Below, piece by piece: positions 780 to 32,575 of a stretch of 32,575 nucleotides of DNA. The position numbers were made by a program, and so were the translations under genes. The notes under the pieces are model-generated. The model saw only the letters and a list, made by a program, of their open reading frames with translations, did not search any database and was not told where the DNA came from. The stretch's first letter is position 1. Every line of letters starts with the position of its first letter. Origin of the DNA: a virus; IMG/VR virus record IMGVR_UViG_3300021400_000096, positions 1 through 32,575 of that record; one strand, written 5' to 3'.

Positions 780-1874
780 TTATTTAATTTTTAATACTTG
801 ACCTGCATAGATGAAATTATAATAGTTGGCTCTGACTCCATGTCTTTGAGCATCACTATCAATTAAAGATTTATTCTTATTATAGATATCTTGCCATGTA
901 GTACCATATTTTTTAGCAATACCACTTAAAGTATCACCTCTTTGTACAGTATATGTAATTGAACTATTAGAAGCCCCTTTATTTGATGAATTAAGTATCT
1001 CATTTACTCTATTTTGAACTTCTGAATAGTTATATCCCTCTGCTTCTAATTTTGTCTTTCTTTCAGGATAATTACCATAATCTCCATTGATTACTTTTTT
1101 AGCAATTTCATCAAGTGATAGTTTTGTACTAGGTGCAGGTGCAGGTGTACTATTTCTACCTACTCCTTTATCAACTAGAGCCTGTACTGCATTATATCTA
1201 GAACCTAAAGCCTGTTTTCTTGCATCACCATTACCAAACTCACCTGTCCATACTCTTCTTGCAAGTTCTTCATCACTTACATTAGGAAATGGGTCTGTTG
1301 TAGGAGTGGATGGAGTATTTTGACTATACTCAACATAATTTAATTTACCATGATTAACCCATGTTCTAGTATTATAGCCACTTTTTTTACCTATATTACC
1401 TACTGCAGTTATTTGTACACCATCTTTCCAAATTGGAGTACACTCTACTGCTAATCCATTACCAATATAGATACCAACATGACCTGACATGTGTACTAAT
1501 TCTCCTACTTGAATATTAGAAAAATTAGTAGATACTCCTGTACAATATTTCATTATACCATCTGCACCTACATCAGGAACACCATTTGATGCATAAGATG
1601 CACCACCATAAATCTTACCTGTATTGCCAGACCATCCCCATAGAATACCTTTAATCAAGCAAACACAATCAAATCCAAATGTATCTGCACTTGCATTTCT
1701 TATTTTAGATGCTCTTGAACTTTGAGCATTATAAGAGTGATGATTGATATACCTTGTTTTATTGGTACTATTCATAGGTGCACCAAAACATCCCATTACA
1801 TATAATGTTTTATATTTTGTTGCAATATCTCTTGCAATATTAGCAAATTGAGTATTATTCATAACTTTACCCAT
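780..1874 (-). CDS. Endolysin: N-terminal Cys/His (NlpC/P60-like) hydrolase, two CW_7-like repeats, C-terminal LysM
   Basis: FDCVCLIKG...GHVGIYIGNG Cys-His motifs. Two repeats of type ARRVWTGEFGNGDARKQALGSRYNAVQALV. LysM signature YTVQRGDTLSGIAKKYG...IYAGQVLKI. GGAGG RBS present. Confidence 0.85.
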   Translation of the reverse strand: MGKVMNNTQFANIARDIATKYKTLYVMGCFGAPMNSTNKTRYINHHSYNAQSSRASKIRNASADTFGFDCVCLIKGILWGWSGNTGKIYGGASYASNGVPDVGADGIMKYCTGVSTNFSNIQVGELVHMSGHVGIYIGNGLAVECTPIWKDGVQITAVGNIGKKSGYNTRTWVNHGKLNYVEYSQNTPSTPTTDPFPNVSDEELARRVWTGEFGNGDARKQALGSRYNAVQALVDKGVGRNSTPAPAPSTKLSLDEIAKKVINGDYGNYPERKTKLEAEGYNYSEVQNRVNEILNSSNKGASNSSITYTVQRGDTLSGIAKKYGTTWQDIYNKNKSLIDSDAQRHGVRANYYNFIYAGQVLKIK

Positions 1875-2595: not shown

Positions 2596-2697
2596 TTAGT
2601 TCTCTAGTGCTTCTTCAACTTGTGCTCTCCATCTTTCAGGAACATCTTCAAGAGTCATTTTGTGAAGTTTTATTTGCATAACATAGAACTTAACCAT
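2596..2697 (-). CDS. Small 33-aa XkdX/CD1375-like protein
   Basis: MVKFYVMQIKLHKMTLEDVPERWRAQVEEALEN. Its ATG overlaps the upstream stop (ATGGTTAA). The motif TLEDVPE+W/LR..V is typical of small proteins found after clostridial phage tail fibres. Confidence 0.45.
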   Translation of the reverse strand: MVKFYVMQIKLHKMTLEDVPERWRAQVEEALEN

Positions 2698-3001
2698 TAT
2701 AAATCACCTCTGCCATTTCAACTATAGCATCCTCTAGAGTATTTATTCTATCCTCTAAAGTGATTTTTTCATCTGATGGAGAATAATCTAAATATTTATA
2801 AGGGTCTTTCTTTATCATCTTCTCTGTTATTTCAGATGAATTAATTCTAAATTGATTAAAATCATGAACAAATAAAGTGTTTCCATCTTCATCTGTTACT
2901 TCTTCTACAAATCTGTAAATAAATACATCTGCCAAATCATTTTGTAATGGCATGTATCTATATTCAGGTTGTCTTTCACTAAATACTGCTCTTACTTGCA
3001 T
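2690..3001 (-). CDS. Hypothetical acidic protein (XkdW-like position), not Avd-like
   Basis: The ATG at 3001 lies 9 nt after AGGAGG, while the ORF-track start is 3022. It overlaps the RT 3' end by 23 nt. It is acidic with predicted beta content, unlike basic four-helix Avd proteins. Confidence 0.6.
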   Translation of the reverse strand: MQVRAVFSERQPEYRYMPLQNDLADVFIYRFVEEVTDEDGNTLFVHDFNQFRINSSEITEKMIKKDPYKYLDYSPSDEKITLEDRINTLEDAIVEMAEVIYNG

Positions 3002-4175
3002 TTGATATAACCTCCTTTGCATTTTTTAGAGTCTTTTTTAGTTTTACTTTCTTAAAGTATTTTTTACTCCATGAGTGCTTAAAATAGCCATGATATGATA
3101 CTACTTTATATGCATCCTCTAGAGTCAACTCAAAATTATTTCTTTTTGCTTTTAAATATACCTTATTTGCTCTATCAAATATTCTCTTTCTGATAGTAGT
3201 TTTATAAGTATATATCTTATATCCCATCATATCTATTGGTCTAGAGTCTAGTGGGAATAATTGATATGATGGTTTTAATGTTAAATCCATATTATTCAAG
3301 TATTCTTCAAGCATTTTAGATGCTTTTTTTACATTTTTCTTACTAGAACCTAATAATAATATGTCATCCATATAGAATAAAACATGATTTACAAGATTTA
3401 TTCTATTATCTCTTCTTGTTGTATATAACATTTCACTCACATAATGATATGGATATGATAAAAAGTAGTTAGCAAGGAATTGTGATAAATAAGAGCCTAT
3501 ACATAATCCCTCATCATAAGTATCTATTAATGTATAAAGCAAATAAAGCACTCTATCGTTCTTTATATCTCTTCTTAAATACTTTTTAATGATATCATGA
3601 TTAACACTAGGGTAAAACTTCTTAATATCACACTTAAAAACCCATTTACATTGTTTAGGGTTAGTTCTTATCCATGTTTCAATGGCATTTTTGCCAAATA
3701 TTTGACCTTTTTCTGATAAAGATGCACATTGATAATGCCCTATCTTTGCCAAAAACATCTTTTTACAAGCATTTACTGCAATATAGTCATAACATTGTTG
3801 CTTCATACTTGCAATTCCAATATTTCTCATCTTTTTTGCAGATGTATCATATCTTTCTTCATACATTATTGGAGATAGTTGTATATTATGATTAATTATC
3901 TCTAAATACATCTCTTTAGCAATATAATCAACCATTTTATGCAAGACAGTTCTATCTGTTCTTGCTATTTTTCTTATCCTTTTAGCCAAAATATGAGCAG
4001 GTGGGATATCACTTGTATATTGTGATACCCACTTCTGTACATATTCTGCAATGAAACAAGATGTATCATGTCTTGTCCATCTTTGCTTACCACTTGTAGT
4101 ACCATCCAAGCAATCATAAATGCTATATTTAACAAACTCATAAGATAAATCAAACTTACTTAAATATCTTTTCAT
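2979..4175 (-). CDS. DGR-type reverse transcriptase
   Basis: RT motifs are CDIKKFYPSV, GLCIGSYLSQFLANYFL (the DGR-typical xGxxxSQ), FYMDDILLLG (YMDD at 3363..3374) and LTLKPS...MGYKIY. It lies directly downstream of the TR. Confidence 0.9.
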   Translation of the reverse strand: MKRYLSKFDLSYEFVKYSIYDCLDGTTSGKQRWTRHDTSCFIAEYVQKWVSQYTSDIPPAHILAKRIRKIARTDRTVLHKMVDYIAKEMYLEIINHNIQLSPIMYEERYDTSAKKMRNIGIASMKQQCYDYIAVNACKKMFLAKIGHYQCASLSEKGQIFGKNAIETWIRTNPKQCKWVFKCDIKKFYPSVNHDIIKKYLRRDIKNDRVLYLLYTLIDTYDEGLCIGSYLSQFLANYFLSYPYHYVSEMLYTTRRDNRINLVNHVLFYMDDILLLGSSKKNVKKASKMLEEYLNNMDLTLKPSYQLFPLDSRPIDMMGYKIYTYKTTIRKRIFDRANKVYLKAKRNNFELTLEDAYKVVSYHGYFKHSWSKKYFKKVKLKKTLKNAKEVISNASKSSI

Positions 4176-4387
4176 TTGTTATCATCCTTTCAAGATATCA
4201 GGGACTTTCAGTTTATTTTACTAGCCCCACATTATATCTATATATCATATAATGTCTTTACTAACCCACATTGTGGCTTTCAAGTTGGTGTTACAATCTC
4301 AAAGTTTTAGCAATGCTAGAGTTAATTCAAAATTGAATTATGTCCTACCAAGGTACGGTGTCAAAAATCACTCCTTATATTTTTTAC
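4176..4387 (-). ncRNA. Non-coding TR-RT spacer (presumed 3' part of the DGR template RNA)
   Basis: 212 nt with no minus-strand ORF between TR and RT. It contains short palindromes, for example AATTCAAaaTTGAATT at 4324..4339. The role is inferred from other DGRs. Confidence 0.45.
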
Positions 4388-4497
4388 TTGAAATCCGAGC
4401 GAGGATATTCCAATTCGCATTAGTTACAGTATTATTAGCATTGAGGCAGGAAAGACCGGCATTAGTTCCATTATTCATATTACCGAGCCACAAGAAC
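4388..4497 (-). repeat. DGR template repeat (TR)
   Basis: Aligns with 4656..4765 at a constant offset of 268. It is non-coding here but, in VR frame, would read LFLWLGNMNNGTNAGLSCLNANNTVTNANWNILARIS with 10 AAT codons. Confidence 0.9.
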
Positions 4498-4528
4498 AAT
4501 CCTCTTTTTTTGACATCCTCAACTCAAC

Positions 4529-4537
4529 ATTATATCA
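4529..4537 (-). promoter_or_regulatory. Candidate extended -10 promoter (TGaTATAAT) for the TR-RT transcript
   Basis: The minus strand reads gTGATATAATg about 30 nt upstream of the TR. The -35 is weak (TTCAAT). Confidence 0.35.
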
Positions 4538-4601
4538 CTTTTTATTGATTTATTGAATATTTTGAAAGCATTTAATTTTGAATTTTTATTTTTTCTATAA
4601 T

Positions 4602-4621
4602 CAAGGGGAGAGCCCCTCTTG
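4602..4621 (-). promoter_or_regulatory. GC-rich hairpin immediately after the target-gene stop, about 35 nt 3' of VR
   Basis: CAAGGGGAGAGCCCCTCTTG has a GGGG/CCCC core (4605..4608 and 4613..4616) with flanking pairs. No U-run follows on either strand, so it is not a classic terminator. Confidence 0.5.
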
Positions 4622-4623
4622 TC

Positions 4624-6741
4624 CTATTCGGACAATTCACCCCCAACACCATTGATTGAAAGGCGAGCGAGGAGATACCAATACGCAAAAGCCACAGTAT
4701 TAATAGCATTGAGGCAGGAAAGACCGGCAAGAGTTCCATGATGCAGAGCACCGAGCCACAAGAACTCTCTTTGTCCTGATGTTCCACTATCTACATATAA
4801 ACCATCTGCATAGCCTACAGTAGAACCTGCACCACTTTGACCTGCTTTAGTAGGTACTGCAATTCCATCTTCTGTATCAAAACCATATTCAGTAATATAC
4901 TTCCATCCATTTAATGATGCAGGTTGAATTACTAAATCTGACTTTTTATAATTGTTCTTTGCAGTTGTTATATTTGTAGTAAGGATAGAAGCATTATTTG
5001 TATAATAAACCTCTCTATCTCCTGATGAGTTTACTATGTCCATAAATGCATTTCCTGCTACTTCATATCCACCTACACTCAATTCTATTCCATTGAATAC
5101 CATACCATGCTTACGATTAGTATTTGAGCCAACAGAACCTGTTCTACCTAGAATATCATCACTATATCCACTTCTTTCATGCATAGTTGATACCCAAGTG
5201 GTAGTTGTTGTAGTTATTGGTGCATGTTCTAGAATTAATGCAGTATGTCCACTATCTACTACTTCTTTGCCTATTACTTTTACATCATAGGCTAAATTAT
5301 GCATATATCCTTTACTTCTATCATTATCTGTTGCAGTACCTCTATCACCTACTGATACATAAGTATTAATATCAATATTATTTGCCTGTGCAGTAGTTAA
5401 TACTACTCTATTAACATTTGACTCTGCAACAGATACATTATATTGATAATTATTCTCTGTATTACCACCTAGAATTGATTGAGTATTCTTTGTTGCAAAT
5501 TGAAGATAGAAAGTAGTTAATATATGCATATAGTCAGACATTAATCCTGCACTATAATAAGAACCTTTTTGATGCATCAAACCAACACATCCACTATATG
5601 ATATACCATCTGAAAACTCTTCATCACCTGTTGGATTAGATAAGTAGTGAGCAGGTATTAATCCTTTAGAACTATATAAAGTTCCATCAATATCTCCTAC
5701 CACATATTTACCAATTGTGAACCAAGGACTAATAGTACCATCTTTATTTATAGCCTGTGGCACTACATTATAGCCTTTTCTAGGCATAAATGACCTAGAA
5801 ATGTATAAATATCCATCCTCTTCCCAAATCTTCTGATAATAGGTTCTAAATAAGCAGAAAACATCAACTTTTCCTGTATCTTTATAGTTTGGCATACCTT
5901 TAATTGATGTTACATGTCTTACACCATTGCTATCAACTACTGCATTAACATCATAACTTTGCCATGCTTCACTATAATTATTAACTTCCTCAACTGTATC
6001 TGTTGCAGGAGTTATTGATTTACCAATATTTGCATCTAATTTTTCACCTTGACATGTATTACTTGTATCCCATAAAGGAAATCTAACAGTATATACACCA
6101 TAATCAGGAGTCAAAGCAAAATGATTTTTGATACTCTCTTCAATTCTCTTTGAATTACCCCACTCACTAAAGGTAATACCTGTTGTTTCTTCGGCATCTT
6201 CCTCTATTTGTAAGGCATTTGCATTAAATCCATCTAATTTTGCATCATAATTGCTATTAAATGTATCTAATAGACTTGAAGCATTTGTATTAAACTCTTG
6301 TAATTTTGCTTCTGCATTTGCATTATAGGTAGGAATTAATCCCTCAACTCTATTAATTAAATCATCTAGTATTTGATAATTACTATCTGACTCAATATCA
6401 CTAGGGTCAATTTCTAATCCACTATCTACTACTTCAATAAGACATTTTTTACTATTTGTTAATTTACTATCTTCATCATATATTGATACACCAAAGAAAT
6501 ATCTACCTGTTACATCAAATATAGATGGGTCATCAATAGTTACTCTATTATTATTAATAGAAGTAACATAAACTTTGCCATTTGGCTTTAATAAATAAAA
6601 TAATTGTAGTGTACCTGTTTTACTAAATTGAAAAACAAGGTCAACTGAATTATAATCACCCTTAACTAGAGTGATAACATCTGATGTTAAACTATCAGAA
6701 CCCTCAAAATTAACTAAAACATTAAATATTTTATTTTCCAT
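4624..6741 (-). CDS. Tail fibre / receptor-binding protein, DGR target with C-terminal C-type-lectin-like variable tip
   Basis: 705 aa, last gene of the tail module. The C-terminus is ...EFLWLGALHHGTLAGLSCLNAINTVAFAYWYLLARLSINGVGGELSE. The W.G....AG....N pattern is typical of CLec-fold DGR variable regions. Confidence 0.85.
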   Translation of the reverse strand: MENKIFNVLVNFEGSDSLTSDVITLVKGDYNSVDLVFQFSKTGTLQLFYLLKPNGKVYVTSINNNRVTIDDPSIFDVTGRYFFGVSIYDEDSKLTNSKKCLIEVVDSGLEIDPSDIESDSNYQILDDLINRVEGLIPTYNANAEAKLQEFNTNASSLLDTFNSNYDAKLDGFNANALQIEEDAEETTGITFSEWGNSKRIEESIKNHFALTPDYGVYTVRFPLWDTSNTCQGEKLDANIGKSITPATDTVEEVNNYSEAWQSYDVNAVVDSNGVRHVTSIKGMPNYKDTGKVDVFCLFRTYYQKIWEEDGYLYISRSFMPRKGYNVVPQAINKDGTISPWFTIGKYVVGDIDGTLYSSKGLIPAHYLSNPTGDEEFSDGISYSGCVGLMHQKGSYYSAGLMSDYMHILTTFYLQFATKNTQSILGGNTENNYQYNVSVAESNVNRVVLTTAQANNIDINTYVSVGDRGTATDNDRSKGYMHNLAYDVKVIGKEVVDSGHTALILEHAPITTTTTTWVSTMHERSGYSDDILGRTGSVGSNTNRKHGMVFNGIELSVGGYEVAGNAFMDIVNSSGDREVYYTNNASILTTNITTAKNNYKKSDLVIQPASLNGWKYITEYGFDTEDGIAVPTKAGQSGAGSTVGYADGLYVDSGTSGQREFLWLGALHHGTLAGLSCLNAINTVAFAYWYLLARLSINGVGGELSE
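4656..4765 (-). repeat. DGR variable repeat (VR) in the last ~37 codons of the tail-fibre gene
   Basis: 17 mismatches to the TR. Sixteen are at plus-strand T in the TR, which is A in the coding sense (TR 4394, 4406, 4409, 4415, 4420, 4421, 4424, 4425, 4435, 4462, 4463, 4472, 4475, 4478, 4480, 4481). One is non-A (TR 4395 / VR 4663). Confidence 0.9.
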
Positions 6742-9963: not shown

Positions 9964-10661
9964 TATAACCACCTACTTTTTGGCTCTACTATTAATTTAG
10001 TTAAATTACCTGTCCAACTGATAGTATTGACTCCTACATCTAAAATAGGAAAATTGCCTGACATTTTTCTGTTTTTTAATATTAATCCTTTGTATGCTTC
10101 TAATTGCATAGAGTCAATTACAACAAACTCATCATCAATATTAACTGTAAAAACATCATAACCATTTATAGTTAATGTTACCTCACCATCACCATATAAA
10201 GTAATAATAGGTTTTGATTTCTCAAGACCTACATTTGTTACTTTAACCTCTGTTTCATTTGTTATATTAAACACAAATGGAGGTTCATTTAAAGCATATT
10301 TAAATGGTTGAACATGAAATGTTACTTTAGCAGTTCTAAATGTCAAAAGTCTTTCATAATCAACTTTACTGTATATTTGTGCTTTATATACTTTATCAGG
10401 TTCATTTGATAAAACTAAATCTCCTGAACCACTAAAATATTTTATTATTTTATCTATATTATTAGAGTTTTTTAATCCTATTTTGATAGATTTATTATAT
10501 GCTCTATAACCTAATTCATCTACAATATCACCATCTGCACCATCTATTTCAGTAATATCTACTCTTATTTCAGGGGATGAGATAGGAGATAATTCACTTA
10601 TAACCAAATTATCAAATGTATTACTATTAATACCTTTAAAAATTAAATAATTCTTACTCAT
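9963..10661 (-). CDS. Distal tail protein (Dit)
   Basis: 232 aa, located between the tape measure and Tal, with overlapping start and stop codons. Confidence 0.7.
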   Translation of the reverse strand: MSKNYLIFKGINSNTFDNLVISELSPISSPEIRVDITEIDGADGDIVDELGYRAYNKSIKIGLKNSNNIDKIIKYFSGSGDLVLSNEPDKVYKAQIYSKVDYERLLTFRTAKVTFHVQPFKYALNEPPFVFNITNETEVKVTNVGLEKSKPIITLYGDGEVTLTINGYDVFTVNIDDEFVVIDSMQLEAYKGLILKNRKMSGNFPILDVGVNTISWTGNLTKLIVEPKSRWL

Positions 10662-12961
10662 GTATAAATCACATCCTCTACTTTGTTTACAACTATTTCT
10701 CCTACCTTATCACCATCTAATTTTACATACATACCTGTTAAAGCATCTCTTACTGCTTCTGCAATAGACTCACTTTGAGATAGTACACCATTGTTAAATG
10801 AACTTGTAATATCATTATGTAATGTAGTATTGACTCCTACATCATAATCTGTTGGGATTGCATTTGCTATTTCTTTATTTACATCATCCATTTCATCTGA
10901 AAAACCTACACCAATACCTTTTGCAAGGTTTACACCTATTTCATCTCTGAATAAGGTTGATGGTGAGTTAATTCCAAATAATTTTTTGATAAACTTAAAT
11001 ACATTACCTACCCAACCTTTTATTTTGTCTTTAATCCAATTCAATGAATTACTAATACCATTCCATAACCCTTTAATCATATCAAGACCTACTGATGCCA
11101 TTTGAGTAACACCATTTGCTAGTCCTTTGACTAAAGCAGTTATTATTTGAGGTATTTTAGAAACTAATTGAGGTATTGCTTTTATTAATCCCTCTGCTAA
11201 TTTAATAATTAAAGTAATTCCCATTTGGATTATTTTAGGTAGATTATTTGTTATTGCAGTAATTAATTTATCAATTATTTCAGGCATTTTATCTATTAGT
11301 TTAGGTAAAGCCTCAATAATTCCATCTATCAATGCAAATATTATTTGAATACCTGCATCTATTATTTCATCTAGATGGTCTATTAATGTTTCAACAATTG
11401 TTATTACTGCATCTACAATTACAGGTATTAAATCAGGAATAGTTTGTACTAATCCATCTATTAATGATAATAATACTTGAATACCACACTCTATTATTTG
11501 AGGTAGATTTTGAACTAATGTTGTTACTAATTGCATAATAACCTGTGTTGCTACATTTGCAATCTGTGGCAAAATAGTTGTTAATCCACTTATTAAACTA
11601 GATATTATATTATTAACACTTTCAAGAACTCTAGGCATATTTGATGACATACCTTGAACTAAATTATCTATAGTATTCATACCTATTTCTAATAATTTAG
11701 GTAGTATTTCATCTGCAAAGGCAACTATCATATCACCAATACCACCTATTATTACTTCAATTCTAGGTATAATGTTATCTAAAGCAGTTATTAAACTTTC
11801 AACTAGATTATCAACTAATCCCTCAAAATTAGCATTGTCATCTGCAATACCAACTAGCATATTACTCCATGCAGATTTTAATGAAGCAACTGAACCTTGA
11901 ATTGTTGAACTTGCTTCTTTTGCAGTTGTTCCTGTTATTCCAAGTTCACCTTGTATAACATGAATAGCAGAATATACATCATTAAGATTTTTAATGTCAT
12001 ATTTAATTCCTGTTATTTTTTCTGCATCTGCTAAAAGTCTTTCCATTTCAGTTTTAGTTCCACCATAACCTAATTTCAAGTTATCTAACATTGTATAATT
12101 TTGTTTAGCAAAGCCTTGATAAGCATTTTGAATACTTTCCATTGAAGTACCCATTTTATTAGCATTATCTGCCATATCTGTTATTGCCATATCTGCTATC
12201 TCTGCAGATTTAGCAGTATCTCCATTTAAACTTTGTAATAAAGAGGCACTAAATGATGTTACTGTTTCCATATATTGGTTTGCAGATAAACCTGCAGTTT
12301 TATAAGCATTATTAGCATAATTTTGTACTATACCTGCACTATCTTTAAATAATGTTTCTACCCCACCTACTAATTGTTCATAATCTGCATAACTTTCTAA
12401 TGCTTGTTTCCCAACATCTATGAACATAGAGCCTAGTTTCTTCATACCATCAACAAGTTCAGATATACCTTTTTTAATAGCATCACTTATTAAATTAGCC
12501 TTAATTATATCTCCTAGAGATAAAACCTTTTTACCTGCTTTATCAGACTCATTACCTAATTCTTTAACTTCATCTGCATTATCTTCTGTGGCTTCACTTG
12601 ATTTTTTCATTGTTTCTTCGTTGTCTTTTACTTCTTTTTCCATAGAAACTAATTGAGCAGTTGCTTTATTTAATTCAGTTTGCCATTTTTGAGTAGTAGC
12701 AGAACTTTCTCCTGTTTCTGCTTTAGACTCTTCTAAAGCCTTTGTCAAAACTTCTACTTTTTCCTTTTGTGCTTCAATCTGTTTATTTAAAACTTGATTT
12801 CTTTCTGCTAGTCCTTGTACAGATTTATCATTTCTCCCATAAGTTGCAGTTACTATCTGCATCTCACTAGACATAACTTTTAAATTAGAAACAATTTCAC
12901 TTAATGCTTTTCTATATTCAGTTTCTCCTGAAAGTTTGACAGTACCACCAAATGAACTCAT
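10658..12961 (-). CDS. Tape measure protein
   Basis: 767 aa with an N-terminal coiled coil and a long helical periodic central region (LPQIIECGIQVLLSLIDGLVQTIPDLIP... repeats). It follows the frameshifted chaperone. Confidence 0.9.
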   Translation of the reverse strand: MSSFGGTVKLSGETEYRKALSEIVSNLKVMSSEMQIVTATYGRNDKSVQGLAERNQVLNKQIEAQKEKVEVLTKALEESKAETGESSATTQKWQTELNKATAQLVSMEKEVKDNEETMKKSSEATEDNADEVKELGNESDKAGKKVLSLGDIIKANLISDAIKKGISELVDGMKKLGSMFIDVGKQALESYADYEQLVGGVETLFKDSAGIVQNYANNAYKTAGLSANQYMETVTSFSASLLQSLNGDTAKSAEIADMAITDMADNANKMGTSMESIQNAYQGFAKQNYTMLDNLKLGYGGTKTEMERLLADAEKITGIKYDIKNLNDVYSAIHVIQGELGITGTTAKEASSTIQGSVASLKSAWSNMLVGIADDNANFEGLVDNLVESLITALDNIIPRIEVIIGGIGDMIVAFADEILPKLLEIGMNTIDNLVQGMSSNMPRVLESVNNIISSLISGLTTILPQIANVATQVIMQLVTTLVQNLPQIIECGIQVLLSLIDGLVQTIPDLIPVIVDAVITIVETLIDHLDEIIDAGIQIIFALIDGIIEALPKLIDKMPEIIDKLITAITNNLPKIIQMGITLIIKLAEGLIKAIPQLVSKIPQIITALVKGLANGVTQMASVGLDMIKGLWNGISNSLNWIKDKIKGWVGNVFKFIKKLFGINSPSTLFRDEIGVNLAKGIGVGFSDEMDDVNKEIANAIPTDYDVGVNTTLHNDITSSFNNGVLSQSESIAEAVRDALTGMYVKLDGDKVGEIVVNKVEDVIYT

Positions 12962-30068: not shown

Positions 30069-30184
30069 GTTGAGTTTCCTCAACTATATTAAGTATAATC
30101 ACAAATAATTTTTTTGTCAACAACTTTTATTGATTTTTCTCAATTTTTTTATATTTTTCTCAACTTTTGTTGATTTTTCTTAAT
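30069..30184. promoter_or_regulatory. Operator array of the lysogeny switch
   Basis: Perfect GTTGAG-TTTC-CTCAAC at 30069..30084. Related sites lie at 30129..30144 and 30169..30184. The 10-mer TTTTCTCAAC and variants end at 30084, 30121, 30144, 30164 and 30184. Confidence 0.6.
30092..30120 (-). promoter_or_regulatory. Leftward (cro/lytic) promoter
   Basis: On the minus strand, TTGACA (30120..30115), a 17-nt spacer and TATACT (30097..30092). Confidence 0.55.
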
Positions 30185-30197
30185 TTCTGTGTATAAT
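30170..30197 (+). promoter_or_regulatory. Rightward (cI maintenance) promoter
   Basis: TTGATT (30170..30175), a 16-nt spacer and TATAAT (30192..30197). A GGGAGG RBS precedes the ATG at 30221. Confidence 0.5.
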
Positions 30198-31268: not shown

Positions 31269-32312
31269 ATGAAATTACCAAATAATTATGGTTCTATTGA
31301 GAAGTTATCAGGTAAGAGAAGAAAGCCATATATGGTAAGGAAAACTGTAGGATGGGATGAAAATGGTAAACAGATAAGAAAAATCATAGGATATTATGAA
31401 ACAAAGACTCTTGCCCTGCAAGAATTAGCCTTATTCAATGAGAAACCTTATGATATAGATGCAAGAAATATTACAGTAAAGGAATTACATCAGAAATGGC
31501 AAGATGAAAAATATCCTAAAATTGCATATAAGACTACCAAAGTATATGATATGTGTTGGAATTATTGTACAGATTTACAGGATATGGCTTTTGTTGATAT
31601 CAGATTAAATCATTTACAAGCCATTGTAGATGGTATGGGTAATAAATGGAGTGCTAAAAAGGCATTTAAAATATTATGGCATCAGATGTATGATTATGCT
31701 ATTAAAAATGATATTAATGTAAGAAAGTATTCAGAATACATTGATATAGGCAAAAAAACAACCAAATTAGAGCGAGTTCCTTTTGAAGAGGATGAAATAG
31801 ACAAGTTATGGAAAAATGTTGATAGGATGGACTTTATTGACACAATTTTAATACTAATCTATACAGGTATGAGAGTTGGTGAACTATTAGATATAAAAAT
31901 AGAAAATGTTCACATGGAGGAGAAATACATGATAGGTGGTTCTAAAACAGAGGCAGGTAAAAATAGAGTCATACCTTTTCATGAAAGAATTATACCTTTA
32001 GTTAAGAGATGGTATGATAAAGCAATTGAAGTTGGTAGTGAATATCTAATATTTAACCATGAATACGACCAAATGAAATATTGGAACTATTATCATGAGA
32101 AATGGGAAAAGATAATACAACAATTAGAGTTCAATGGTGAACATAAACCTCATGATACTAGACATACCTTTTCTACTCGTATTGATAGAACAGATGCTAA
32201 CAAATTATGTGTTAAAAGAATACTAGGACATGCAAGTACAGATATTACTGATAAAGTATATACACATAAAGATATAGAGGATTTATTAGAGGCAGTAAAT
32301 AAAGTAAAATAG
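31269..32312 (+). CDS. int: Tyrosine integrase
   Basis: 347 aa with an N-terminal SAM-like domain. Catalytic residues are R (TGMRVGELL), HDTRHTF, LGHAS and Y (KVYTH). An AAGGAGG RBS is present. Confidence 0.9.
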   Translation: MKLPNNYGSIEKLSGKRRKPYMVRKTVGWDENGKQIRKIIGYYETKTLALQELALFNEKPYDIDARNITVKELHQKWQDEKYPKIAYKTTKVYDMCWNYCTDLQDMAFVDIRLNHLQAIVDGMGNKWSAKKAFKILWHQMYDYAIKNDINVRKYSEYIDIGKKTTKLERVPFEEDEIDKLWKNVDRMDFIDTILILIYTGMRVGELLDIKIENVHMEEKYMIGGSKTEAGKNRVIPFHERIIPLVKRWYDKAIEVGSEYLIFNHEYDQMKYWNYYHEKWEKIIQQLEFNGEHKPHDTRHTFSTRIDRTDANKLCVKRILGHASTDITDKVYTHKDIEDLLEAVNKVK

Positions 32313-32335
32313 CCTCTTTTTTATTGCTTATTTTG

Positions 32336-32367
32336 TGTTGGCTACTTGTTGGCTACTTGTTGGCTAC
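32336..32367 (+). promoter_or_regulatory. Integrase arm-type sites, 3 x TGTTGGCTAC with 11-bp phasing (attP P arm)
   Basis: Copies at 32336..32345, 32347..32356 and 32358..32367, directly after the int stop. Confidence 0.6.
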
Positions 32368-32468
32368 CTATAAAATCTAGGGGAGTTTTCAAGATACCTT
32401 AACATAAGAAAAACCCCATAAACATTGAGTTTATAGGGTTCGTAAATGATACTTTTACTATCGTTTTG

Positions 32469-32575
32469 TAAATTGATGTACCTTATATTTCAAGGGAAAA
32501 CAAGGCATTTGTTGGCTACCTGTTGGCTACTCATTAAGTTTTATACATTACTTATTTAATAAAATCATCAATTTT
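32469..32575. repeat. Direct terminal repeat, copy 2 (identical to 1..107)
   Basis: Exact match to the window start. Confidence 0.9.
32510..32530 (+). promoter_or_regulatory. Integrase arm-type sites, 2 x TGTTGGCTAC (attP P' arm)
   Basis: Copies at 32510..32519 and 32521..32530, in the same orientation and phasing, about 140 bp from the first cluster. Confidence 0.55.

Follow-up and report, generated by a model that had tools for sequence, protein, structure and literature searches.

An accessory-free diversity-generating retroelement with adenine-specific differences between template and variable repeats in a phage of gut Bacillota

In bacteria and phages, diversity-generating retroelements (DGRs) are, to our knowledge, the only natural system for the targeted hypermutation of proteins, and tools for directed evolution are being developed from them. 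The accessory protein Avd is essential in the model system, the mtd-avd-TR-brt element of Bordetella phage BPP-1, and is present in ~74% of DGRs. Avd is not universal, and an accessory-free "A1" architecture described by Wu et al. accounts for 29% of DGRs, including an avd-less lineage (PMC5758913). Here we describe an element of this kind in IMG/VR virus record IMGVR_UViG_3300021400_000096, the whole 32,575 nucleotides of which were analysed and are called the window below. The element comprises a template repeat (TR), a variable repeat (VR) within a tail-fibre-like target gene, and a reverse transcriptase (RT) gene. We put the probability that it is a functional DGR with the accessory-free "target - TR - RT" layout at about 0.96, a reading supported by adenine-specific mismatches between the repeats, a DGR-type RT, the constancy of TR and hypervariability of VR among related genomes, the transfer of polymorphisms from TR to VR, and covariation in the intervening RNA.

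The cassette has the A1 architecture, consisting of TR and RT only. As in the A1 DGRs and the avd-less 'Lineage 3' of Wu et al. 2018 (PMC5758913), target, TR and RT follow one another on one strand without Avd, HRDC, MSL or CH1, the hosts are Firmicutes (Bacillota) or their phages, and a putative initiation of mutagenic homing (IMH) site and its TR counterpart (IMH*) can be recognised; this likeness to Lineage 3 is one of layout, host and IMH, not of position in the RT tree. With the BPP-1 prototype, the locus shares a phage tail receptor-binding target with a C-terminal VR, a TR upstream of the RT on the same strand, and adenine-only differences between the two repeats. BPP-1, however, carries avd between target and TR, whereas here there is none, and the gap between VR and TR is only 158 nt long and contains no open reading frame (ORF).

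TR and VR align without gaps over 110 columns at a constant offset of 268 nt, with 17 mismatches. On the coding (minus) strand, 16 of these mismatches are adenines in TR, and the remaining one is a TR G (plus-strand position 4395) opposite a VR C (plus-strand position 4663), at the eighth base from the 3′ end of homology. Given a TR coding-strand composition of A30 T36 G22 C22, mismatches hit 16 of 30 adenines but one of 80 other bases (Fisher one-sided p = 3.0e-10), and none of the 36 coding-sense thymines is changed. In the frame of the target gene, TR translates as FLWLGNMNNGTNAGLSCLNANNTVTNANWNILARIS and VR as FLWLGALHHGTLAGLSCLNAINTVAFAYWYLLARLS; eight of the ten AAT codons are changed, resulting in 12 amino-acid substitutions and no stop codons, along with two silent changes (GTA>GTG and CGG>CGC). 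A preliminary description, made from the sequence alone, had given the same offset, mismatch counts, codon changes, peptide strings and single G/C exception, all of which we could reproduce, and tabulating the alignment by TR base places the mismatches at adenines rather than over all four bases.

The TR adenines sit in AAT, ACT, ATG, ATC, ATT, GGA, GTA and TCA codons, none of which can become a stop codon by adenine change; this codon context means that no stop codon can arise. The number of reachable protein sequences is ~1.8e15, or ~4e14 if the fixed ATT is left out. In its own right, the TR reading frame has no start codon and runs into a stop five codons past the homology. With every A treated as N, the TR pattern has exactly two matches in the window, namely TR and VR, and none in 100 shuffles; this degenerate scan of the window thus revealed no further VR elsewhere in the genome.

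An exact-protein look-up found the identical RT on contigs of many independent metagenomes (pig gut and others), ten of which were retrieved; the site counts that follow cover ten genomes, that is, the window and nine of these ten contigs. Comparison with homologous phages, which the preliminary description had proposed as a check on which copy varies, bears out its expectation: at the 29 positions that are A in every TR, TR shows no variation (0/29), while VR varies at 26, is unchanged at two, and carries C in every genome at one (4394). Over the ten VRs, the bases at adenine sites are A 141, T 68, C 53 and G 26, and the variable VR positions span 4674-4749. Among the remaining 81 positions, seven are polymorphic in TR, and the cognate VR carries the same base wherever the TR base is not A; at the 74 non-adenine sites with a constant TR, VR varies at only two (one G>T and one codon deletion). 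Position 4427 is G in both TR and VR of the window and of two identical-RT contigs (L046 and L048), and in the other genomes it is A in TR and C, A, T or G in VR. An invariant donor, a hypervariable recipient and one-way copying are what mutagenic retrohoming predicts.

The RT protein is identical in at least ten samples, although the surrounding DNA differs at hundreds of sites. The contig closest to the window, L046, differs from it at 15 positions in 8175 nt, all of them TR-adenine sites of VR. Since nothing but these sites separates the two sequences, the comparison indicates that the element was active recently, within the time separating near-identical genomes.

The RT satisfies the DGR signature, [ILV]GxxxSQ in motif 4 together with YxDD, with IGSYLSQ at residues 226-232 and YMDD at residues 267-270. 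Its closest match in the PDB is the Bordetella phage bRT (8ub7), and in an alignment with BPP-1 Brt, IGSYLSQ lies opposite IGSLTSQ and YMDD opposite YMDD, so that the two enzymes share IGSxxSQ and YMDD; the RT here is nevertheless 70 aa longer (398 versus 328 aa) and only 25% identical to Brt. Other RT classes were considered and rejected on NCBIfam scores, a group II intron RT at 58.8 bits against a cut-off of 300 (group_II_RT_mat) and a retron RT at 27.6 bits against a cut-off of 235 (retron_St85); the score with the Drt3a model is likewise far below its cut-off.

The two repeats end differently. In coding sense, the 3′ end of TR reads ...ATCCTCGCTCG-GA-TTTCAAG and that of VR ...CTCCTCGCTCG-CC-TTTCAAT. 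The last site variable among the genomes (4406 in TR, 4674 in VR) is followed by an identical 10-bp GC-rich block, the dinucleotide, six identical bases and the end of homology, and GA in TR against CC in VR is fixed in 10/10 population variants. Because the counterpart of 4394 in VR is C in all variants, the A at 4394 forms part of this fixed donor/recipient difference. The mismatch at 4394 is therefore probably an IMH/IMH* difference and not a product of mutagenesis, so that of the 16 adenine mismatches in the preliminary description, a count that is correct, about 15 rather than 16 would be mutagenic.

The preliminary description had also interpreted the G/C mismatch as a distinction between IMH and IMH*. 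This interpretation is well supported by its fixation in the ten variants, by differences at the same place in relatives, and by BPP-1, which has mismatches at the equivalent place. All but one of ~30 related DGRs show a one- or two-base TR/VR difference at this position, with bases that differ between relatives: most have a two-base version (TR/VR), such as AA/CT, AA/TC, AC/CT, AT/CG and AA/CC, two loci (L032 and L037) have a single-base difference, and one (L015) has none. The order of elements is also like that of BPP-1, where the last variable A precedes an identical GC-rich block, a short segment in which TR and VR differ at non-A bases, the stop codon and, finally, a GC hairpin. In BPP-1, the GC block is 14 bp long and five IMH/IMH* mismatches are scattered over TR 120, 124 and 126-128, whereas the discriminator here is 2 nt. 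By analogy with BPP-1 genetics (PMC3240598, PMC5758913), the discriminator would have a role in one-way transfer from TR to VR.

Between TR and RT lies a spacer with blocks conserved across the family. An RNAalifold consensus of eight relatives, with RTs 59-87% identical, contains eight helices with 44 pairs; in the same alignment, 96% of the cells are paired, and compensatory changes occur at 21 of the pairs. Controls gave far fewer compensatory pairs: 9.3 +/- 1.9 in column shuffles (0/500 reaching 21) and 1-5 when partners were slid by 1-3 columns. A search of Rfam with positions 4000-4900 found no family at E <= 1. In the closing helix, P1, UUUCAAG (4387-4393) pairs with CUUGAAA (4188-4194), which places the 5′ strand directly 3′ of the discriminator and the 3′ strand just before the RT ribosome-binding site (RBS). 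Relatives keep P1 at the same two places with other sequences (UUUCUUGA/UCAAGAAA, CUCAAGAUAU/AUAUCUUGAG and UCAAGACAUUA/UGAUGUCUUGA). A duplex-score control discriminates weakly in such AT-rich RNA (cognate 17, non-cognate 14.9, shuffled 13.9), and support for P1 thus comes from its constant position and compensatory versions rather than from the duplex score.

A TR:spacer duplex beside the end of the mutagenised region is also found in BPP-1 (bioRxiv 10.1101/2023.10.23.563531). There, the duplex is formed by TR 118-129 and Sp 47-56 and ends at the nucleotide that primes, Sp A56; TR G117, immediately 5′ of the duplex, is the first base to be templated, and the IMH* mismatches all fall within the duplex (PMC6182149; bioRxiv 10.1101/2023.10.23.563531) and are thus never copied. 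The geometry differs in that the spacer strand of the duplex is ~200 nt from TR here and ~50 nt in BPP-1, with hairpins enclosed between the strands here. If the analogy holds, complementary DNA (cDNA) synthesis at this locus would start from the 5′ edge of P1, within the GC block or adjacent to it, and such a start would explain why the discriminator is not transferred.

Directly after the conserved ...GGTGAAT that encodes the target C-terminus, two adjacent hairpins, HP1 and HP2, are present in every family member with that motif, which means in all loci with a TR/VR pair except four. HP1 has ten different stem sequences among 30 distinct relatives, all of them pairing. As its stems differ in length, RNAalifold on MAFFT-aligned hairpin regions recovered only HP2, and HP1 was instead tabulated sequence by sequence. 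No T-run follows HP2, and no terminator-like site was called there. The two hairpins resemble the GC-rich inverted repeat after IMH that BPP-1 and Legionella need for efficient homing (PMC3240598), and Wu et al. reported inverted repeats after IMH in 34% of DGRs (PMC5758913). Here, two hairpins stand in tandem ~20 nt past the homology, compared with one directly after the homology in BPP-1.

The extended -10-like motif TGATATAAT is a candidate promoter of the TR-spacer-RT transcript, and TGnTATAAT-like motifs also occur upstream of TR in two relatives (L007 and L057); a simple promoter scan did not call the site at 4529-4537. The same scan did call a strong sigma-70-like site, TTGACA-16-CATAAT (11/12), at 4337-4364 on the minus strand within the spacer, overlapping the conserved 'GACACCGTACCT..AGGACAT' block. 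This site may serve as an internal promoter of RT alone, or its match may be coincidental to the conserved RNA sequence.

Taken with what is established for BPP-1, these features suggest how the element may work. The RT would bind a transcript containing TR, the ~210-nt structured spacer and probably the RT mRNA. Synthesis of cDNA would begin at the 3′ end of TR, beside the TR:spacer duplex, and run 5′-ward through TR, with the RT misincorporating opposite adenines only, and the cDNA would then replace VR, the 3′-terminal part of the tail-fibre-like gene. VR would be marked as the recipient by its GC-rich block and VR-specific CC, probably aided by the two downstream hairpins, while TR, with GA and without hairpins, would stay the donor. 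The priming site, the directional role of the discriminator and the role of the hairpins are all modelled on BPP-1.

Several observations weigh against a functional DGR. We found no accessory gene of the Avd, HRDC, MSL or CH1-like kinds within the cassette or close to it, and neither the flanking small ORFs nor eight other small ORFs of the phage gave a Pfam, NCBIfam or PHROG match to Avd. DGR variable proteins display VR on a C-type-lectin or Ig-like fold (VR classes CLec1-3 and Ig1-2). The VR-bearing domain here could not be recognised as C-type-lectin-like, or assigned to one of these classes, in the models available: two AlphaFold models (from alignments of 53 and 62 sequences) have a predicted local distance difference test (pLDDT) score of 31-55 across VR, neither gave a Foldseek match in the PDB, and hhalign of the target with Mtd, to which it has no detectable similarity, gave no match. 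The steps of cDNA synthesis, priming and retrohoming are read here from sequence. Finally, three of the identical-RT contigs have aberrant repeats, which may reflect real decay or assembly artefacts. In L053 (contig ERZ27260661 k99_14932, 3683-3800), a single chimeric repeat has a VR-like 5′ part with substituted A sites and a TR-like 3′ part that carries GA as in IMH*. Missing from this contig are the 268 nt that separate VR from TR, and its target ends ...ARISSKKYKE* at 701 aa; either VR and TR recombined and the DGR was killed, or the repeats collapsed in assembly. The VR of L049 (3417-) lacks one codon opposite TR AAT AAT, giving a 704-aa target, and in that of L054 (3412-) an inserted nucleotide shifts the reading frame and leaves a target of 684 aa; both may be indels associated with the DGR, or they may be artefacts of a consensus built from mixed populations.

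The missing avd gene and the collapsed or frameshifted VRs of L053 and L054 would fit a fossil, in which the repeats record past mutagenesis by an element that is now dead. We consider this very improbable, as the RT ORF is intact and its protein unchanged across samples despite the divergence of the DNA around it, VR tracks polymorphisms of TR, and the near-identity of L046 and the window outside VR requires very recent diversification. Still further from plausible, to the point that it can practically be set aside, is an ordinary diverged direct repeat, such as a duplicated gene 3′ end, with its A mismatches due to chance or AT-biased drift. A/T changes are common in a genome of 28.6% GC, but drift of this kind does not account for changes confined to one strand, at coding-sense A and never at coding-sense T (p = 3e-10), for one copy staying invariant across samples while the other is hypervariable, or for the adjoining RT gene.

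A narrower alternative concerns the 3′ signals, and here we see an unlikely but appreciable chance that the G/C mismatch and its neighbour are neutral differences without a role in discrimination, and that the hairpins are the terminator of the tail-fibre operon. The VR-side bases are indeed constrained by coding (CGC CTT, Arg Leu), the hairpins come right after the stop codon with the promoter-like TGATATAAT next, HP1 is kept in L079, a relative that has lost or never had TR and RT, and inverted repeats follow IMH in only 34% of DGRs (PMC5758913). Neutral differences, however, would hardly recur at one position in all but one of ~30 relatives with varied bases, coincide exactly with the beginning of the TR:spacer helix, or stay fixed in 10/10 variants though one of the TR bases is A. 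A terminator, in turn, sits poorly with the lack of a T-run or called terminator site after HP2, and the sequence conservation of HP2 is unusual for a terminator stem; in BPP-1, the GC block, mismatches, stop codon and GC hairpin come in the same order, and there the hairpin is needed for efficient homing (PMC3240598).

Table 1. Positions of the DGR components and adjoining features in the window.
Feature	Position	Strand	Remarks
Target (variable-protein) gene, tail-fibre/receptor-binding-like, 705 aa	4624-6741	minus	ORF; phrog_17147, E 4.5e-81; VR at C-terminus
Variable repeat (VR)	4656-4765	minus	C-terminal part of target gene
IMH-like 3′ end of VR	4656-4673	minus	GC-rich block TCCTCGCTCG 4664-4673; discriminator CC 4662-4663; TTTCAA 4656-4661
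Hairpin HP1	4619-4635	minus	TTGTCC-GAATA-GGACAA; contains target stop codon
Hairpin HP2	4604-4617	minus	AGGGG-CTCT-CCCCT; sequence conserved across family
Extended -10-like motif TGATATAAT	4529-4537	minus	between HP2 and TR; read from sequence
Template repeat (TR)	4388-4497	minus	non-coding; 30 adenines; 10 AAT codons in VR frame
IMH*-like end of TR	4394-4405	minus	GC-rich block 4396-4405; discriminator GA 4395-4394
Structured spacer RNA between TR and RT, eight helices	4176-4393	minus	covariation; 212 nt from TR to RT start
DGR-type RT, 398 aa	2979-4175	minus	Pfam RVT_1 2.6e-14; phrog_1423 4.9e-68
Acidic 103-aa ORF	2690-3001	minus	overlaps RT stop codon by 23 nt; isoelectric point 4.4; own RBS AAAGGAGG
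33-aa CD1375-family ORF	2596-2697	minus	after 103-aa ORF

The target matches a PHROG of unknown function, phrog_17147, and its gene lies between a DUF859 tail protein and the lysis genes. VR encodes residues 659-694 of the 705-aa protein, for which we found no Pfam match and, by phmmer or HMM search, no match in the PDB.

To place the cassette in a wider family, we used RT-based scans, which yielded 45 IMG/VR loci (34-71% identity) and 12 genome loci. The nearest loci are in metagenome-assembled genomes (MAGs) of Bacilli and Erysipelotrichaceae from rabbit, roe deer and rumen; the nearest public RT relatives have 87% identity (a rabbit-gut Bacilli MAG), followed by others at 71-74%, and a group at 37-39% identity comes from Lachnospiraceae such as Hespellia, Dorea and Coprococcus. 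A VR - TR - RT layout with A-only differences is present in 54 of 68 sequences (the window counted), wherever the upstream DNA suffices, and loci that share one TR (for example L020, L021, L025 and L030) have different VRs. Prophage DGRs of the Lachnospiraceae (Hespellia, Dorea and Coprococcus; L062, L064 and L065) and IMG/VR contigs from gut and rumen resemble the window in their cassette layout and in the C-terminus of the target, which is homologous (...GQRE-W/FL-LG...NG..GE); they also have both HP1 and HP2, the TR:spacer helix and, after the RT, a gene like the 103-aa ORF, although the RT of the Lachnospiraceae prophages is only 37-39% identical to that of the window.

Both the 103-aa and the 33-aa ORF are conserved after the RT in most relatives, the former in ~59/67 loci. 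The 103-aa ORF has no family match in Pfam, PHROG or NCBIfam and no similarity to BPP-1 Avd (Bbp7). A word-indexed protein search found only its close relatives, among GenBank phages its homologue occurs only beside the nearest RT, and an alignment of 19 sequences was too divergent for a locus scan. We rejected it as a DGR accessory gene, as two relatives (L079 and L080) carry a homologue directly after a fibre homologue without RT or TR; it probably belongs to the tail/lysis module of the phage, within which the TR-RT pair has been inserted. In these two relatives (L079 3340-3520, and L080), the fibre homologue has a VR-like C-terminus (...GQREFLGLGYLGAGYSAGLSCLHATYGDGGAYWYILARLSINGVRG*), and between it and the 103-aa ORF homologue lie an HP1-like hairpin and a degenerate HP2. 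With no TR and no RT at this locus, their arrangement suggests either DGR loss or a pre-insertion state.

The carrier is a temperate siphovirus-like phage of low-GC gut Bacillota, with an integrase encoded at 31269-32312, and its host is a poorly studied gut lineage, Bacilli/Erysipelotrichaceae-like. Positions 1-107 and 32469-32575 of the window are 100% identical over 107 nt, which implies a circularly assembled (or terminally redundant) complete phage genome of ~32,468 bp. A megablast of the cassette against GenBank phage records found no match. The genes on the minus strand are, in order, the DUF859 tail protein, the 705-aa target, TR, spacer, RT, the 103-aa ORF, the 33-aa ORF, XhlA, holin and endolysin.

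The endolysins differ among the identical-RT genomes: two (L051 and L052, 6357-7370) have CHAP + CW_7 + LysM, and the window (780-1874) has NlpC/P60-like + CW_7 + LysM, so that a mosaic lysis module accompanies a conserved DGR core. Clustered direct repeats (TTGTTGGCTAC) at 41-69, 32335-32374 and 32509-32537 occupy the genome 'ends' and the DNA immediately downstream of the integrase gene; they may represent arm-type sites of the integrase, attP sites or some other array bound by a protein. Three tandem 20-nt repeats (CAACTTTT.TTGATTTTTCT...) at 30121-30194, intergenic between divergent early genes, could be an operator- or origin-like array. A 97-nt direct repeat of 70% identity (11294-11390 and 11426-11522, spacing 132 nt) lies within a 767-aa ORF at 10658-12961, which is probably a tape-measure protein with an internal protein repeat.

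One extension of these results, which we put forward tentatively and hold to be rather doubtful as a whole, is that the window represents a large clade of Avd-independent phage DGRs, with at least 50 loci in phages of animal-gut Bacillota. In such a clade, the enlarged RT and the eight-helix, ~210-nt spacer RNA would replace the Avd pentamer, the tandem hairpins would serve target recognition, and the C-terminal display domain would be neither a recognisable C-type lectin nor an Ig fold.

Conceptually, the element adds little, as its mechanism, layout, IMH logic and Avd-less architecture have all been described before, and it follows the rules of BPP-1 closely. Specialists may want to follow up the minimal layout, which combines the absence of Avd with a large spacer RNA that covaries, as well as the tandem hairpins and the fold taken by the variable domain. 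The locus is also an unusually clean natural example of a DGR: different animals harbour near-identical genomes that are distinguished by nothing but adenine sites of VR, TR polymorphisms are visibly copied to VR, and a natural G-to-A change in TR makes an otherwise fixed VR position variable. With its compact cassette, in which target, TR, structured RNA and RT are present and Avd is not, this clade is a candidate minimal system for studies of priming and homing without Avd and for engineering.

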